64,000 nucleotides of DNA. Origin: Candidatus Nanohaloarchaea archaeon. Lineage in GTDB: Archaea > Nanohalarchaeota > Nanosalinia > Nanosalinales > Nanosalinaceae. The notes under the pieces were generated by a model that was not told the origin of the DNA, made no database searches, and saw only the letters and a program-made list of their open reading frames with translations. Below are positions 19,348-26,369 of the stretch, one piece after another. Position numbers and translations under genes: made by a program. Each line of letters opens with the position of its first letter. Position 1 is the stretch's first letter. The stretch covers positions 128,001-192,000 of the forward strand of contig JACOQA010000003.1 in assembly GCA_014297435.1 (NCBI GenBank). The letters are read 5' to 3'.

Positions 19348-19465
19348 AGTCTGGCAGCGTCCCGGAACTCCCGCCTGTAAGGCAGTACCGACCGGATCGC
19401 TGAGGGACTTTACTTCCGTGTTCGGGATGGGTACGGGTGTAACCCCCTCGCTCTGACCGCCAGTA
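19348..19465 (-). rRNA. rrf: 5S rRNA (stand-alone)
   Basis: Reverse complement CTGGCGGTCAGAGC...ACACCCGTACCCATCCCGAACACGGAAGTAAAG...GCTGCCAG with terminal helix I. Confidence 0.96.
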
Positions 19466-20037: not shown

Positions 20038-21002
20038 AGGATAAGATTGAATCAGCTCTTGAAGAAAGTTTTGAGTGGACGAAAATTGAGAAAGGCTTAA
20101 ACAGTGTTTACAGAATCTATTCCGGGAAAAAAAAGTTTATCGTGAAAGTTCATACTAACGAAAACCTTGAATCCGAAAATTTCAAAGCCGAGCCACTCAT
20201 TTACGATGCAATACAGGAAAAAACGGATGTTCCAAGCCCTAAAGTCATACATGAATCACTTGATGACGAAGAGTTCAGCTTCTATGTCATGGAATTAATT
20301 GAAGGAGAGAATCCCGGACCAAGAAGAAAGAACTTGGAAATGGAAACCCTTGAAGACTTAATTTTCGAATACGGCAAGATTCTAGGGGAGATACATAGAG
20401 AAATAGGCTTCGAATCCTACGGAGAACTCGAAGGAAGTACGGACGGACCGACAGTCAGGGATAGTTCTGAGAACTGGAGGGATGAGCTCTCTGAAATATT
20501 CCATGTTTATAGGGATATTGTCGAAGACGAGTGGGATAACCCTCCGAAAATGGAAATACCTGATAATTTGGGCTGTATACCTGAGAGACCTAAGCCCTCA
20601 CTTATTCACGTAGACAACAGACTTGACAATCTTCTAGTCGAAGACAATCGGATAACCGGATTTATTGACTGGAGTTTTACACGTACCGGTCATAACGAGT
20701 ACGATCTCATACGGGCAGAATATCTGCTAATAGATTATGATCTAAGATTTCTTAGTGAGACCAAAAAGGAAAGACTCAAAGAAAGCCTTTTCGGAGGGTA
20801 TAGGGAGGAAATTGATCTGGATAAAGATTCTGGGTTCAAAGCAAGGAGACAGTTGTACCGGTATGCCCCGGTTTTCTGGCTGGCTGCAGGGTTTCAGAGC
20901 TGGGGTCAGGACCTAGAAAAAGATGCTTACCAGGAGATGCTCCAGTTGATTATTGAAAGCCTAAAGGAGGAAAAGCCAAAAAATCTTCCCTTCAACCAAT
21001 AG
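20022..21002 (+). CDS. Aminoglycoside phosphotransferase-family kinase
   Basis: LIHVD.RLDNLL, GFIDW. Confidence 0.85.
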   Translation: MEQAIKDKIESALEESFEWTKIEKGLNSVYRIYSGKKKFIVKVHTNENLESENFKAEPLIYDAIQEKTDVPSPKVIHESLDDEEFSFYVMELIEGENPGPRRKNLEMETLEDLIFEYGKILGEIHREIGFESYGELEGSTDGPTVRDSSENWRDELSEIFHVYRDIVEDEWDNPPKMEIPDNLGCIPERPKPSLIHVDNRLDNLLVEDNRITGFIDWSFTRTGHNEYDLIRAEYLLIDYDLRFLSETKKERLKESLFGGYREEIDLDKDSGFKARRQLYRYAPVFWLAAGFQSWGQDLEKDAYQEMLQLIIESLKEEKPKNLPFNQ

Positions 21003-21004
21003 TT

Positions 21005-21289
21005 ATGCCTATCACTCCTGAAAACCTTCCCCGCCACGAACTGATCGGACTTGAATGCGAAGTTGTAGAAGCAAAGGATGAGAACCTGATCGGATTGAAA
21101 GGCGAGGTTCTTGATGAGACTCAATCCCTACTAAGGATTGGTGATACGAAGGTCGAAAAGAAGATCTGCACTTTCGAATTCGAGCTTCCTTCAGGCGAAA
21201 AGGTCGAGCTGGACGGCAAACTGATTGATAAGAGACCTGAGGAACGTGTCGGGATGAAGCTTCCGGGCAAATGGAGTTACGTTGATTGA
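21005..21289 (+). CDS. rnp1: RNase P protein subunit Rpp29
   Basis: HELIGL, G.G.VLDET, RPEER. Confidence 0.95.
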   Translation: MPITPENLPRHELIGLECEVVEAKDENLIGLKGEVLDETQSLLRIGDTKVEKKICTFEFELPSGEKVELDGKLIDKRPEERVGMKLPGKWSYVD

Positions 21290-21326
21290 ACGAGCCTTTT
21301 TGAATTTTTGTTACTAACTGGTATGT

Positions 21327-21614
21327 ATGGGAGAGGGGAACTACACTTCGATCGAAGATTATTCTCAAGAAGGAGAGTTTGAGGTTGTGACTGCATTCAA
21401 CCTTGTAAATGAATTTGATATGAATCCTGAGCCAGGGAAGATGTGGGCTGTAGCCGATTATCTTATGAAGTCACTTCAGGGAAAGGACGAGGCTGATTCT
21501 TATGACGAAGCTATCCTCAAGTCGGCGAGAAACACCAGTATTGATCGTGGAGACAACCAACTGGACCTAGCTTACGATACTATCGAGGAGCTTGGAAAGC
21601 TTTACCTCGACTAA
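21327..21614 (+). CDS. Hypothetical acidic protein
   Basis: 95 aa ORF. Confidence 0.65.
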   Translation: MGEGNYTSIEDYSQEGEFEVVTAFNLVNEFDMNPEPGKMWAVADYLMKSLQGKDEADSYDEAILKSARNTSIDRGDNQLDLAYDTIEELGKLYLD

Positions 21615-21649
21615 ACCCCTTTTTAAAACTTTAGTTCTATTGTTGGGAT

Positions 21650-21779
21650 AGCCGCTTGGAGTCGTGAATTGACGAAAGCCTATTGTCCGGGTTTTCAGAT
21701 TGGAGCGATACTCCGGGAGCAGCGAGAGAAAAACCTCGTGTAGAACGTACAGTTTTTCCCGGGTAACTTACCAGTGGTT
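21650..21779 (+). ncRNA. Candidate ~130-nt structured non-coding RNA, class unknown
   Basis: TATA-like TTTTAAAA ~25-30 nt upstream; nested stems GCCGC(T)TGG/CCAGTGGT and TTGTCCGGG/CCCGGGTAA plus internal hairpins. Confidence 0.6.
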
Positions 21780-21828
21780 TACTTAAAAAGTTTACAATCG
21801 AACGAGACTACATCAGGGCTAAAGAACC

Positions 21829-22110
21829 ATGACAGAATCAATTGAAACCGAATACCCCGTTAGGGGAGGAACTTTCGTTGGGACGGTAGAGTCCACGAAG
21901 ATGCAGAAATCCGCAACAGTAAGATGGGAGTACTCTGAGAAGGTTCCCAAGTACGAGAGGTACGAGAGAAGAAACACCAAGATAACGGTTCACGTGCCCG
22001 AAGACGTAGAGATCGAGGAAGGCGACGAAGTCAAAGTAGGAGAAACGAAGCCTATCTCGAAGACTAAAAGCCATGTTATAATCGAAAAAGTAGAAGACGG
22101 TGAAGAGTAA
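21829..22110 (+). CDS. rps17: 30S ribosomal protein uS17
   Basis: KYERYERR, ETKPISKTK. Confidence 0.97.
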   Translation: MTESIETEYPVRGGTFVGTVESTKMQKSATVRWEYSEKVPKYERYERRNTKITVHVPEDVEIEEGDEVKVGETKPISKTKSHVIIEKVEDGEE

Positions 22111-22509
22111 ATGAAGCCGATCGGATCCAACATAACAAGAACACTGGATATCGGCGCAGAACTTACATGCGCAGATAACTCCGGAGCAAAGAAGCTAGAA
22201 ATCATCGGAGTCAAGGCAAGACAGGGACGACGTTCCCGAAGGAACTCTGCAGGAATCGGAGACAAAGTAATGGTAAAGATCCTGAAGGGAGACCAGGAAG
22301 TCAAGAACCAGGTCTTCGAAGCAGTGATCGTCAGACAGGCAAAGGAATTCCAGAGACCTAACGGACTAAGAGTAGAGTTTGAAGACAACGCAGCAGTACT
22401 AGTGGAAGACACAGGACTTCCAAAAGGATCGGTTACAAGAGGACCTATCGCGAAAGAAGTCGTCGAAAGATACAGCCCGATCGGAAAGATCGCATCACAG
22501 GTGGTGTAA
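22111..22509 (+). CDS. rpl14: 50S ribosomal protein uL14
   Basis: CADNSGAK, FEDNAAV. Confidence 0.98.
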   Translation: MKPIGSNITRTLDIGAELTCADNSGAKKLEIIGVKARQGRRSRRNSAGIGDKVMVKILKGDQEVKNQVFEAVIVRQAKEFQRPNGLRVEFEDNAAVLVEDTGLPKGSVTRGPIAKEVVERYSPIGKIASQVV

Positions 22510-22512
22510 AAA

Positions 22513-23247
22513 ATGGTAAACGAGACAGAGAACTGGAGTAGCAACTGGAAATCAAGCAAGAAACCTTCAAAACAGAGAAAGTACAGAGATAACGCACCTC
22601 TACACGTAAAGGACAAACTTGTTTCTGCACATCTAGACGAAGAACTTAGAGAAGAAGTCGGAACAAGAAACATGCCTCTCAGAACAGGAGACAGAGTAAG
22701 AGTTATGAGAGGAGACCAGAAAGGTGCAGAAGGAATCGTAAACAATATTGACAGAGAAAATACTCGAGTCTACATCGATGGAGTTGAGAACGAGAGAACC
22801 GATGGTTCAACGAACCAGAAGGCTTTCCCTCCATCCAACGTACAGATCGTAGCACTAAACATCGAAGACATCTCAAGGATCGAGAAATACGATGTCGAAG
22901 ACTACGAAGAGATCAAAGTCGAAGAAGAAGAGCTCGAAGAAGCCCTAGCAGAAGATGAAGAAGAGAACGAGATGATGCAGCAGATGCAGGGCGGAGAATC
23001 AGGAGCTCACGAGCAGTTCGAAGAAGACGAAGAAGAAACAGAAGAAGTAGAGGAAGAGACTGAAGAAACAGAAGAGGAAGAAGTTGAAGCCGATTACAGC
23101 GAAGTTGTTTCGCAGAACATCGGCGATGTAAAGGATTCAGTTCAGGAGATGGAAAGCCCTGACTACGATGCTCTGCTCGAAGCAGAGGAAGACAACAAGG
23201 ACAGGAAAACCATGAAGGAATGGATCGAATCTCAAAAAGAGGAGTGA
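22513..23247 (+). CDS. rpl24: 50S ribosomal protein uL24 with long acidic C-terminal extension
   Basis: SKKPSKQRK, APLH, GD.V.VMRG; ~125 extra residues. Confidence 0.97.
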   Translation: MVNETENWSSNWKSSKKPSKQRKYRDNAPLHVKDKLVSAHLDEELREEVGTRNMPLRTGDRVRVMRGDQKGAEGIVNNIDRENTRVYIDGVENERTDGSTNQKAFPPSNVQIVALNIEDISRIEKYDVEDYEEIKVEEEELEEALAEDEEENEMMQQMQGGESGAHEQFEEDEEETEEVEEETEETEEEEVEADYSEVVSQNIGDVKDSVQEMESPDYDALLEAEEDNKDRKTMKEWIESQKEE

Positions 23248-23253
23248 TTTCAA

Positions 23254-23913
23254 ATGACAAAACACCAGAAAAGGCTTTCAGCACCTAAGCACTACCCTAT
23301 CTCGAGAAAGGATAACACTTACGTCTCGACGATCAAGGGTTCAAGAAGTTTCGAAAACGCAATACCGACCGTCCTACTTCTCAGAGACGTACTTGAGTAC
23401 GCGGACAACGAGAAGGAAGCGAAAAAGATTGTCAGAGACGGAAAAGTCTACAGAAACGGCGACAGGATCAGAGACGTAAAAGAAGGCGTAGGTCTTCTGG
23501 ACGTCGTAACAATCCCTGAAACAGAGGAAGCCTTCAGAGCAGTAAGAAGAGGCAAGTACCTAGAGTTCGTCGAAATTGAGGACGAAGAAAGGGTTGCCGC
23601 AAAAGTCGTTGACAAATCTGTTGAAGGAGATGAATACGTTTACAGGCTTCACAACGGAGAAAACTATGCTACTGGAGACGAGTTCTCCACAGGCTCAACG
23701 CTTGTTTTCAACGGCGGAGTCGAGGAACTAGAGCTCGAAGAAGGAGCAACAGTTCTAGTTGTCGATGGACAGCACGCCGGAGAGACAGCAGAGCTTGAAG
23801 AGATCAACGAAAGAGGAATGAACAAGAACACAGGTCTCGTGTCCACGGAAGAAAACTCTTTCGAGACACAGCTCGAAAACCTTGTAGCAGTTGGAGACCT
23901 GGAGGTCGAGTAA
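23254..23913 (+). CDS. rps4e: 30S ribosomal protein eS4
   Basis: HQKRLSAP, LLRDVL, GLLDV. Confidence 0.96.
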   Translation: MTKHQKRLSAPKHYPISRKDNTYVSTIKGSRSFENAIPTVLLLRDVLEYADNEKEAKKIVRDGKVYRNGDRIRDVKEGVGLLDVVTIPETEEAFRAVRRGKYLEFVEIEDEERVAAKVVDKSVEGDEYVYRLHNGENYATGDEFSTGSTLVFNGGVEELELEEGATVLVVDGQHAGETAELEEINERGMNKNTGLVSTEENSFETQLENLVAVGDLEVE

Positions 23914-23916
23914 AAA

Positions 23917-24429
23917 ATGAGCGAGAACGTGATGAAGCAGATCGAGATCGGTAAAGTTGTAGTAAACATAGGAATAGGACAGGTCGGAGACGACGTTGAA
24001 AAAGCAGTCAACCTGCTTGAAAAACTTACAGACAAGCAGCCTGTCAAAGCAGAATCAAAGGAAGCTTCGAAGACGTTCGGAAAACGTTCCGGACTAAATA
24101 TTGGAGCATTCGTAACCCTCAGAGGAGAGGAAGCAAGAGAGTTCCTCGAAAAAGTTCTTCCTGCAAAGGACGAGCTTGATGCCGACGCATTCGATGGAAA
24201 CGGAAACTTCTCATTCGGTATCTCCGAGTACATTGATGTTCCGGGTGTAGACTACGATGCGGACATCGGCATGATGGGATTCGAGGTAGCAGTAAACCTC
24301 GAAAGACCTGGTTACAGGGTAAAGAAGAGAGACCACAAGCCAACCAGTGTTGGAAAAGAACACCAGGTTTCCAACGACGAAGGAAGAGAGTTCGTCGATG
24401 AAAACTTCGAAGTCGAGGTGAACGAGTAA
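23917..24429 (+). CDS. rpl5: 50S ribosomal protein uL5
   Basis: KVVVNIG, FD.NGNFSFGI, RPGYRV. Confidence 0.98.
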   Translation: MSENVMKQIEIGKVVVNIGIGQVGDDVEKAVNLLEKLTDKQPVKAESKEASKTFGKRSGLNIGAFVTLRGEEAREFLEKVLPAKDELDADAFDGNGNFSFGISEYIDVPGVDYDADIGMMGFEVAVNLERPGYRVKKRDHKPTSVGKEHQVSNDEGREFVDENFEVEVNE

Positions 24430-24654
24430 ATGTCATACGAGAAAGTACTAGACCAGATCAAGCACAAAGAAGGAAAGAGAAAGAAGTTCGAGAAGCACAA
24501 CGCTCCCAAGGACAGGGACTACGGAAAAGCAAAGAAAGAATGCAGAAGATGCGGCAGAACAGGGAAAGGAATTCTTTCCCAGTACGGACTTAACTACTGC
24601 CGTCAGTGCTTCCGCGAAATCGCAGAAGATCTGGGATTCAAACAACTAAAATAG
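24430..24654 (+). CDS. rps14: 30S ribosomal protein uS14
   Basis: CRRCG...CRQCFRE. Confidence 0.97.
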
Positions 24655-24667
24655 AGGTGAAGAAGAG

Positions 24668-25057
24668 ATGCAACACGATACACTGAGCGACGCACTTTCC
24701 GCAATCAACAACGCAGCGAGAAAGGGCAACAACTACGCAACAATCAGCCCTACAAGCAATCTTATCCAGAACGTCCTACTCAAGCTTCAGGACGAAGGAT
24801 ACATCGGAGTCTTCGAACTTATCGAGGACGGTAAAGGTGGAAAGTACAAGGTAGAGGTCAAGGAAGCAGTAAACAAGTGTGAACCAGTCAAGCCTAACTT
24901 CTACGTTGGAAGCGACGAACACACAGAGTGGGCAAAGAGATACTTGCCTGCACGAAACTTCGGAAAACTCATAGTAACAACACCGAGAGGAGTTCTCACC
25001 CACGACGAGGCAGTTGAAGAAAACGTGGGCGGAAAGCTCCTTGGGTACGTCTACTAG
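24668..25057 (+). CDS. rps8: 30S ribosomal protein uS8
   Basis: GYIG.FE, YLPARNFG, GGKLLGYVY. Confidence 0.98.
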   Translation: MQHDTLSDALSAINNAARKGNNYATISPTSNLIQNVLLKLQDEGYIGVFELIEDGKGGKYKVEVKEAVNKCEPVKPNFYVGSDEHTEWAKRYLPARNFGKLIVTTPRGVLTHDEAVEENVGGKLLGYVY

Positions 25058-25069
25058 GTGAAAAAGAAA

Positions 25070-25594
25070 ATGAGAGAGACAGCAGACCTCAACGGATTCG
25101 AAGCCAACTACGAAGACGGCGTACTTGAAGTTGAAGGAAACGGCGAAACAGTTTCAAGAAAGCTTAACCACGCACGAATCGATGTAGAAGTCAAGGATGG
25201 AGAAGTAGTTTTCTCCTCAGACGAGAGCAACAAGACAGTTAAGTCAATCCTTGGAACTTTCAGGTCCCACGTCCAGAACATGGTCGACGGACTTGAAGAT
25301 GAACACGTCTACCAGATGAAAGGTGTTTACGCACACTTCCCTATGGACATCGATGTAGAGAACGACCAGGTAGTGATCGGAAACTTCATGGGAGAAAGAA
25401 ATCCTAGAAAGGTCGATATTGCTGAAGGCGCAGAAGTATCAGTAAACGGCGAAGACCTAGAAATCAGAGGTGCAGACAAAGAAGCAGTAGGACTTACCGC
25501 CGGACGTATCGAACAGGCATGCAAGAAAGGGAACCGCGATCCAAGAACGTTCCAGGACGGAGTCTACATTACAGACAAAGGTGAGAAAGAATGA
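25070..25594 (+). CDS. rpl6: 50S ribosomal protein uL6
   Basis: YAHFPM, NFMGE, RDPRTFQDGVY. Confidence 0.98.
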   Translation: MRETADLNGFEANYEDGVLEVEGNGETVSRKLNHARIDVEVKDGEVVFSSDESNKTVKSILGTFRSHVQNMVDGLEDEHVYQMKGVYAHFPMDIDVENDQVVIGNFMGERNPRKVDIAEGAEVSVNGEDLEIRGADKEAVGLTAGRIEQACKKGNRDPRTFQDGVYITDKGEKE

Positions 25595-25929
25595 GCGACG
25601 ATTTCAAGAGAGAAGACAACCACAAGAAGACACAGACCCCTAGCTCGTGGAGAAAGCCTAAAGGAGGGCACTCCCGTGCACGTCTGAAGAAGAAAGGTGC
25701 GAACCCTCTTCCGAAGGCAGGTTACAGAACTGATAAAGATGTTAGAGGCAAGCATCCTTCCGGATATGAGGAAGTGCTTGTCCACAACACCTCCGACCTT
25801 GAGGAACTTGATGAAGAGACAGAAGCAGCACGAATCGGTTCAACAGTCGGAGACAGAAAACGTGAAAAGATAGTTAAAAAAGCTGACGATGAAGGAATCC
25901 ATGTGCTTAACAGAGGTGACGAAGAATGA
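25591..25929 (+). CDS. rpl32e: 50S ribosomal protein eL32
   Basis: WRKPKG, RGKHPSG. Confidence 0.96.
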   Translation: MSDDFKREDNHKKTQTPSSWRKPKGGHSRARLKKKGANPLPKAGYRTDKDVRGKHPSGYEEVLVHNTSDLEELDEETEAARIGSTVGDRKREKIVKKADDEGIHVLNRGDEE

Positions 25930-26369
25930 CCGACCTTAAATCACAGAAGAGAATGGCTTCAGAAGTACTTGACGTAGGAAAGAACCGTGTCTGGATCGAT
26001 CCGGACAACACAGAGAAAGTAGAGGAAGCCATCACAAGGAACGACATCAGGAACCTGGTCGAGTCAGGAGTCATCCAGAAAAAAGATGTTAAAGGAACCT
26101 CGAAAGGTCGTGCAAGAGACAAGAAGAAGCAGAAAGCCAAAGGACGCAGAAAAGGTCAAGGAAACAGGAAAGGAAAGAAGACAGCAAGGAAAGATTCCAA
26201 AGAAGAATGGCAGGAAAAAATCCGTGCCATCAGGAAAAGACTCAAGGAAATGAAGGAAGAGGAAGAAGTTTCGAACGACGAGTACTGGGATCTTTACGAC
26301 ATGGCAAAGGGAGGATTCTTCCGTAACACAAAACACCTAGAAAACCACGTCGAGAACAAGCTAGAGTGA
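25926..26369 (+). CDS. rpl19e: 50S ribosomal protein eL19
   Basis: QKRMAS, RVWIDP, AKGG.F. Confidence 0.97.
   Translation: MTDLKSQKRMASEVLDVGKNRVWIDPDNTEKVEEAITRNDIRNLVESGVIQKKDVKGTSKGRARDKKKQKAKGRRKGQGNRKGKKTARKDSKEEWQEKIRAIRKRLKEMKEEEEVSNDEYWDLYDMAKGGFFRNTKHLENHVENKLE

Follow-up and report, generated by a model that had tools for sequence, protein, structure and literature searches.

What is the RNA that appears to be encoded directly in front of rps17, at the head of a ribosomal protein operon, in a nanohaloarchaeon with a genome of about 1 Mb? The window analysed here is a stretch of 64,000 nucleotides (nt) from Candidatus Nanohaloarchaea archaeon (assembly GCA_014297435.1, contig JACOQA010000003.1). 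Within it, a non-coding gap of 214 nt (21615-21828) holds an element of ~130 nt (21650-21779, + strand), whose 5' end we infer from promoter spacing and whose 3' end we place at the end of its last pairing strand. The initial annotation had described an orphan, highly structured RNA between rpp29 and rps17 and had considered for it an extremely reduced RNase P or signal recognition particle (SRP) RNA, a new small RNA (sRNA) and a ribosomal protein (r-protein) leader. A conserved RNA is indeed present, but the gap that holds it adjoins a 95-amino-acid (95-aa) open reading frame (ORF) and not rpp29. Because its invariant core copies the S8-binding site in helix 21 of 16S rRNA, the element is, as judged from sequence comparison, likely to be an S8 feedback leader of the S17-L14-L24-S4e-L5-S14-S8 operon.

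A blastn search of the gap against 60 relatives returned only two homologues (G024 and G017), both directly upstream of rps17, so further homologues were sought by rps17 synteny. We located rps17 in 55 of 61 genomes, the window's own included, and took ~1.2 kb upstream of it for 40 genomes, 32 from the window's family (f1) and eight from family f3. The 5' domain of the element was found upstream of rps17 in 27 of the 32 f1 loci; among the other five, a contig boundary truncates one element, another contig stops too near for a call to be made, and three loci are without it (G016, G004 and G014). The pattern shared by f1 loci begins with a CCCTTTTAAAGTTT-type box, which precedes the element in most of them, and continues with [A]CCGCUKGRAGUCG, a variable arm and CGAUACUYNNGG. 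A hairpin follows, usually with GAAAAACC, and after it a strand that complements the 5' end; many loci have next a second TTTAAAAG box, an AGGUGA Shine-Dalgarno sequence and rps17. None of the eight f3 loci has the element, and rpp29 there abuts rps17 with 0-40 nt between the two. The gene 5' of the element varies among genomes (rpp29, an acetyltransferase and others), and the element therefore travels with rps17 rather than with rpp29.

An alignment of 28 sequences made with MAFFT (A2) aligned the 5' domain well and the 3' domain poorly, and 3' pairings were accordingly assessed by script only. A covariance model built from A2 (R1) gave a single match in the window's own genome (21649-21722, 65.9 bits) and 34 matches in total, spread over 32 of 50 family genomes. 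Twenty-six of these lie just upstream of a located rps17, and the other eight are in genomes of unexamined neighbourhood. R1 had no match in 20 genomes of the class's other four families, in the f3 loci or in the relatives' 16S rRNA. One genome (G069) has three R1 matches, on contigs C53, C1 and C4 (a long form, a short form and a weak match), and may be a mixed bin. Two of the loci without the element retain part of its surroundings: in the complete family genome G016 (L042, G016:C1) the RNA is absent and two TATA-like boxes stand ~45 nt apart before rps17, and in G004 (L051) only a short hairpin is left between two TATA-like boxes.

The structure tested on A2 consists of a lower helix formed by strands X and Y, a 2-nt UA bulge, an upper helix that starts with UCG/CGA and a distal hairpin. 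In the window, where every feature of the element is on the + strand, strand X (CCGCUUGGAG, 21652-21661, A2 columns 4-13) is the 5' strand of the lower helix and strand Y (CUCCGGGAGC, 21711-21720) its 3' strand. The invariant upper helix pairs UCG (21662-21664) with CGA (21706-21708), the latter being part of the 3' core strand CGA-UA-CU (21706-21712), whose A2 columns are invariant or nearly so and in which U21709 and A21710 are bulged. The distal hairpin, P2b (21674-21696), pairs GAAAGCC (21674-21680) with GGUUUUC (21690-21696) around the loop UAUUGUCCG. The tested structure has 86.1% paired cells against 75.0% in shuffled alignments, with 0 of 500 shuffles reaching 86.1%, while slid registers were only 36-48% paired. 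Changes on both sides were found in 16 of its 22 pairs. The lower helix (columns 4-13:72-81), the bulge and the upper helix (14-18:65-69) were together 85.5% paired, and nine of their 15 pairs changed on both sides, as in the X:Y pair at columns 11-74 (14 sequences with GC, 11 with AU); the UA, CG and GC pairs of the upper helix were each present in 28/28. In P2b all seven pairs changed on both sides, and 88% of cells were paired. The RNAalifold consensus gives the same hairpin, P2b included, which is also the minimum-free-energy (MFE) fold of the window's 5' domain. The compensatory changes and the conservation in 27 of 32 f1 loci thus bear out the expectation that relatives would support an RNA here, and the many G-U pairs that had been taken to mark the + strand were confirmed by the pair analysis of A2.

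The stems themselves had been drawn differently in the initial annotation and, the terminal stem excepted, those drawn there have no counterparts in relatives. The hairpin GUCG-UGAAU-UGAC proved specific to the window. The supposed inner stem UUGUCCGGG/CCCGGGUAA gave way to the covarying hairpin 21674-21680:21690-21696, of which UUGUCC is the conserved loop, and CUCC of the supposed hairpin GGAG-CGAUA-CUCC pairs instead with a distant GGAG (21658-21661), a pairing that covaries. Ten short-form genomes lack the distal hairpin and keep the core. In the long forms UUGU is invariant in the distal loop (window 21683-21686), and 25 of the 28 homologues have a GAAAAACC-type A-run, mostly 19-31 nt after CGAUA (window 21728-21735, inside the 3' hairpin). 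A kissing interaction between this loop and the A-run was dropped, the two being judged by eye not complementary. The arm between core and distal hairpin has GA-rich internal loops (window 21665-21673 and 21697-21705); those of G018 (L053) place UGAUGA opposite CUGA, resembling a box C/D kink-turn, where a further protein such as L7Ae could bind. The RNA is thus real, restricted to the family and structured.

What, then, might such an RNA bind? Invariant columns of A2 are confined to A-(G)-U-C-G in the 5' strand and C-G-A-(U)-A-C-U in the 3' strand, so that the core comprises A-U and G-C pairs below the bulged UA and U-A, C-G and G-C pairs above it. The window's own 1.0-Mb assembly (15 contigs, 99% complete by markers) yielded no 16S or 23S rRNA, while 5S, SRP and RNase P RNAs are present, and the rRNAs of two complete relatives (G018 and G019) were therefore used for comparison. 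Helix 21 of both 16S rRNAs reads ...CAUGU-A-AGUC-UGCUG...CAGCG-GA-UA-CU-GCAUG..., with the same AGUC/GAUACU core and the same bulge as the element. In sequence, the core of the element is identical to the helix 21 core of these relatives.

In the available portion of one published account, the primary S8 site is described as a helix broken by seven conserved loop nucleotides, with the base triples (G597-C643)-U641 and A595-(A596-U644) and an invariant A642; the same S8-binding element recurs there in the spc mRNA, where S8 represses translation (PMC4176348). The equivalents in the window are A21660 for A596, G21661 for G597, U21709 for U641, A21710 for A642, C21711 for C643 and U21712 for U644. 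The pair equivalent to A596-U644 is A-U in 28/28, that equivalent to G597-C643 is G-C in 25/28, U occupies the 641 position in 26/28, and the A642 equivalent (column 71) is A in 28/28 and unpaired in the consensus. Both the element and helix 21 have AGUC opposite GAUACU, with a UA bulge between two helices, but they differ in several respects. Just before the core an A is bulged in the rRNA (with eight lower pairs in 'bulge' mode), and a purine is paired at that place in the element. Directly above the core the rRNA has a U-G pair, the element an invariant G-C pair. The distal parts are unrelated, and R1 does not match 16S.

A scanner for the core with flanking helices gave a clear-cut result. 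Each of the two 16S rRNAs yielded a single match, helix 21, and window positions 20500-26000 likewise yielded one, the element. There was none in six comparison stretches of operon of ~6 kb each (four from f3, plus G016 and G058), in which a helix-21-type site was sought for families without the element. Throughout the 1-Mb genome, 221 AGTC..GATACT pairs were counted; two have flanking helices, the element being one of them. A motif search of the relatives' 23S rRNA gave no consistent match, with GGAGUCGUAGCGAAAGC found in G018 only and a GUUUUGAAAAAC hairpin that looks unrelated. Two further candidates were set aside: a GGAGUCG stretch in the 23S rRNA of G018 does not occur in G019, and the 8-mer UUGUCCGG, shared with 16S rRNA, is a stem strand there and was taken as coincidence.

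The operon that follows the element encodes the candidate ligand. Its first gene is rps17 (21829-22110, + strand; Pfam PF00366, E 3.1e-23), and the order is S17-L14-L24-S4e-L5-S14-S8-L6..., with intergenic gaps of 13 nt or less. The seventh gene, rps8 (24668-25057, + strand, as is the element; Pfam PF00410, E 3.6e-21), lies 2.9 kb downstream of the element. The best solved relative of the window's S8 is 1i6u_A, titled 30S ribosomal protein S8P (E 1.9e-34), and PDB 1I6U is, we take it, the structure of the helix-21 primary S8 site solved with an archaeal S8.

The element has its own TATA-like box, as first annotated: promoter 1 (TTTTTAAAA, 21620-21628, + strand) stands ~30 nt before the 5' end, a spacing equal to that of the 5S, SRP, RNase P and tRNA genes of the same genome. 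The second box that had been placed near 21782 is also present, as TTAAAAA at 21783-21789 followed by GTTTAC (+ strand), 46 nt before the rps17 ATG; its extended sequence resembles promoters of stable-RNA genes in the same genome. A consensus scan for sigma-70 promoters and intrinsic terminators returned 0 sites, the scan not being designed for archaea. Only 20-23 nt separate the end of the element from the start codon of rps17 in seven of the 28 genomes. This leaves room for a Shine-Dalgarno sequence only, and the element is therefore in the rps17 5' untranslated region (UTR) in those seven. In G016, where the RNA is lost and the tandem boxes are kept, the arrangement suggests that promoter 1 serves the operon. 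Given the linkage to rps17, the seven short distances to its start codon and the match to helix 21, the r-protein leader is the option we favour among those first listed, and we regard an S8 feedback leader of a new, archaeal kind as its most likely identity.

Each strand of the lower helix has a second possible partner further 3'. For strand X this is the complementary strand Z at the 3' end (CCAGUGGU, 21771-21778, pairing with 21651-21659 and closing a three-way junction), and strand Y is also complementary to strand Y' (UCCCGGG, 21757-21763, pairing with 21712-21718), as seen in the fold of the 3' domain, where Y becomes the 5' base of the 3' hairpin. Taken alone, the 3' domain forms a single long hairpin, with Y and its C643 and U644 equivalents paired at the base. 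Compared with shuffled X or Y, X:Z had z<-2 in 11/28 and Y:Y' in 14/28, and one or the other in 21/28. Full-length MFE folds are mostly three-way junctions that combine X:Z, a short stem (P2) and Y:Y' together with the 3' hairpin. Because strands X and Y are used by both, the S8-like hairpin and this junction are mutually exclusive, and the alternative partners of both lower-stem strands suggest a two-state switch.

We propose that excess S8 would bind the hairpin form of the element. Binding would compete with the three-way junction fold, in which the C643 and U644 equivalents would pair elsewhere, and the RNA could act as a two-state switch or, alternatively, the competing fold could tune the affinity of the leader for S8 to below that of rRNA. 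The bound state would then lower the yield of the promoter-1 transcript through altered stability or premature 3'-end formation; such an effect on transcript fate is favoured over occlusion of the ribosome-binding site. The full model, in which the element would be the first archaeal S8-sensing regulatory RNA, in genome-reduced DPANN symbionts, and S8 would drive the switch between a helix-21-like hairpin and a three-way junction to set the fate of the S17-to-S8 transcript, is put forward tentatively, with less confidence than we give to the S8 feedback leader itself.

A number of our own observations weigh against an S8 feedback leader, and they concern the core, the transcript and the output in turn. 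At the core, a C-C mismatch replaces the G597-C643 equivalent in 3/28, and 2/28 are without U at the 641 position. The A595 position is a purine in 28/28 yet is Watson-Crick paired, with covariation, in 25/28 (GC in 14, AU in 11); the bulged A595 of natural S8 sites is thus absent from the element, while the relatives' rRNA has the bulged A. The 28 homologues are moreover kin and not independent, so that counts among them overstate the support.

The missing A595 bulge is one reason to consider a cis-acting leader or protein-binding RNA for a partner other than S8 (S17, L14, L24 or L5, or L7Ae on the GA-rich loops), with the match to helix 21 being coincidental. Such a partner could also account for parts of the element that have no helix-21 counterpart, namely the invariant UUGU loop, the GA-rich loops and the near-invariant GAAAAACC. 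However, the sole invariant block is exactly the AGUC/GAUACU core with its UA bulge, the short forms keep this core and drop the distal hairpin and the GA loops, and the relatives' 16S and 23S rRNAs offered no other consistent match. On this evidence we consider a non-S8 partner unlikely.

As to the transcript, a second promoter-like box separates the element from the rps17 start codon in 17/28 homologues, the window included, and given this box much rps17 mRNA may lack the element. In the window's lineage the element might then be a stand-alone, trans-acting sRNA running from promoter 1 to before promoter 2, and could even so bind S8, perhaps as a buffer. The stable-RNA geometry of promoter 1 would fit this, as would the position of the second box directly after strand Z in those 17, the ability of the 5' and 3' ends to pair (X:Z) as in stable RNAs, and a T5 run inside the element (21753-21757, + strand), a possible archaeal oligo-T termination signal that is weakly supported. 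Yet a second promoter would not fit in 7/28, where the element is in the rps17 5' UTR, all 26 R1 matches of known neighbourhood are upstream of rps17, and G016 keeps the tandem boxes without the RNA. A stand-alone sRNA is thus as doubtful, in our estimate, as a partner other than S8.

The case for an S8 feedback leader is weakest at the output step, as no output mechanism was found. Forcing the hairpin produced no consistent change in Shine-Dalgarno accessibility, in a test in which several sites were misplaced, and complementarity between the translation start region and the element had a mean z of +0.59, with 0/26 below -2. Sequestration of the Shine-Dalgarno sequence, which neither test supports, was accordingly rejected as the output. 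An oligo-T attenuator was rejected as well: a T run of at least 4 occurs in just 15/28 homologues and one of at least 5 in 9/28, and the competing strands lie past the T run and therefore cannot decide termination there. The proposed switch is, in addition, poorly marked in the window itself. Its own z values are -1.03 for X:Z and -1.87 for Y:Y', neither significant; the terminal stem first drawn as GCCGCUUGG/CCAGUGGU does exist in the window and has a significant counterpart in 11/28, but it is not significant in the window's own sequence. The folding energy of the + strand is likewise unexceptional (-42.1 kcal/mol, z -1.23, with 24/200 shuffles as stable; -33.1 kcal/mol, z -0.89, for the - strand). 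The description 'highly structured' therefore holds for the covariation in relatives but not for the energy: the evidence for structure comes from relatives and not from folding energy.

The alternative pairings could also be those of a riboswitch for a metabolite or ion, with the three-way junction as aptamer and the pairings as expression platform. Two mutually exclusive conserved pairings and conserved nucleotides at the junction are what such a reading would draw on, but no Rfam riboswitch matches, the downstream genes encode ribosomal proteins rather than transport or biosynthesis functions, the short forms lose a whole arm, and the invariant core equals a known protein-binding site, all of which make a riboswitch very improbable. 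An Rfam scan of 21560-21880 gave no family match even at E<=10, and a scan of 20 homologous loci gave nothing at E<=1 except one chance match elsewhere. An extremely reduced RNase P or SRP RNA, suggested by loose sequence echoes and by the proximity of rpp29 in the window, has next to no chance of being correct, as rpp29 is not a neighbour in many relatives, the region matches neither model at E<=10, and canonical copies above the Rfam cut-offs lie elsewhere in the window's own genome (G000), the RNase P RNA (RF00373) at G000:C11:58761-59114 with 87.9 bits against a cut-off of 84 and the SRP RNA (RF01857) at G000:C9:40921-41183 with 118.1 bits; the analysis thus removes a false lead. A 5S rRNA, considered for its size, promoter and junction, was rejected with no RF00001 match at E<=10 and with the genuine 5S rRNA gene elsewhere (19349-19464, - strand, 70.9 bits). 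A tRNA or tRNA-like RNA was rejected also, as ARAGORN reported 0 genes in 21000-22500 and there was no Rfam match.

Several features of the surroundings were recorded alongside. The gene rpp29 (21005-21289) is one gene further upstream of the gap than the 95-aa ORF (21327-21614, + strand), which is acidic, belongs to no Pfam family and has no equivalent at the same place in the loci of other genera. The window's S17 (93 aa) and those of part of its family are without an N-terminal segment of ~20 aa (GLDV..PE..C.D..CPFHG) that is present in other genera of the window's family and in family f3. Five contigs (G002:C51, G023:C8, G027:C52, G028:C79 and G007:C9) end ~70-330 nt upstream of rps17, perhaps because synteny is broken there or because assembly repeatedly fails at the locus.

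In bacteria, rRNA mimicry as a means of feedback on r-protein operons is textbook knowledge; to our knowledge, few archaeal cases are known. The nearest counterpart to the predicted S8 feedback leader is the S8 operator of the spc operon of E. coli and gammaproteobacteria, which the available portions of the sources place at the start of rplE and describe as an rRNA mimic acting in negative feedback (PMC4176348, PMC3616713). As far as those portions describe the operator, both it and the element mimic helix 21 on the mRNA, here presumed, of an S8-encoding operon, and they have in common the A-U and G-C pairs, a bulged U and a bulged A, and the helices on either side. In contrast to that operator, which overlaps the rplE start in the same accounts, the element sits in a promoter-proximal leader before rps17, ~110-150 nt or more from any start codon. 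It also has no relation to the operator in sequence or family and no Rfam match, lacks a bulged A595 equivalent, and has an additional hairpin as well as competing pairings; it comes from an archaeon, and its regulation is predicted.

Among archaea, Table 1 of Eckert and Weinberg 2020 has the leaders L4-Archaeoglobi, eL15-Euryarchaeota, S15-Halobacteria and S15-Methanomicrobia (PMC7247131), and the Methanococcus vannielii L1 operator is given as a known archaeal r-protein operator in the available part of a further source (PMC3616713). Like the published leaders, so far as the accessible text describes them, the element is a structured RNA upstream of an r-protein gene, and several of those leaders imitate rRNA sites; unlike them, it differs in ligand, genes and lineage. 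That table contains no S8, DPANN or nanohaloarchaeal leader, and 'nanohaloarchaea', 'DPANN' and 'uS17' occur 0 times in the accessible text of the paper (PMC7247131). No archaeal S8 leader was found in the literature searched, which did not cover subscription papers. In yeast, uS8 regulates the splicing of RPS22B through an intron stem with two bulge loops, which its authors, in the portion available, liken to bacterial S8 sites (PMC13232506). There too, as far as that portion goes, an S8 homologue regulates its own gene through a bulged stem, as is predicted for the element; unlike the element, the yeast case is eukaryotic and intronic and acts on splicing.

If S8 binds the element, it would be a compact natural RNA that responds to a protein and has two conserved alternative folds, open to direct testing in vitro. 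S8 autoregulation would then have arisen independently in bacteria, archaea and yeast, and even symbiont genomes of ~1 Mb would keep, or invent, such control.

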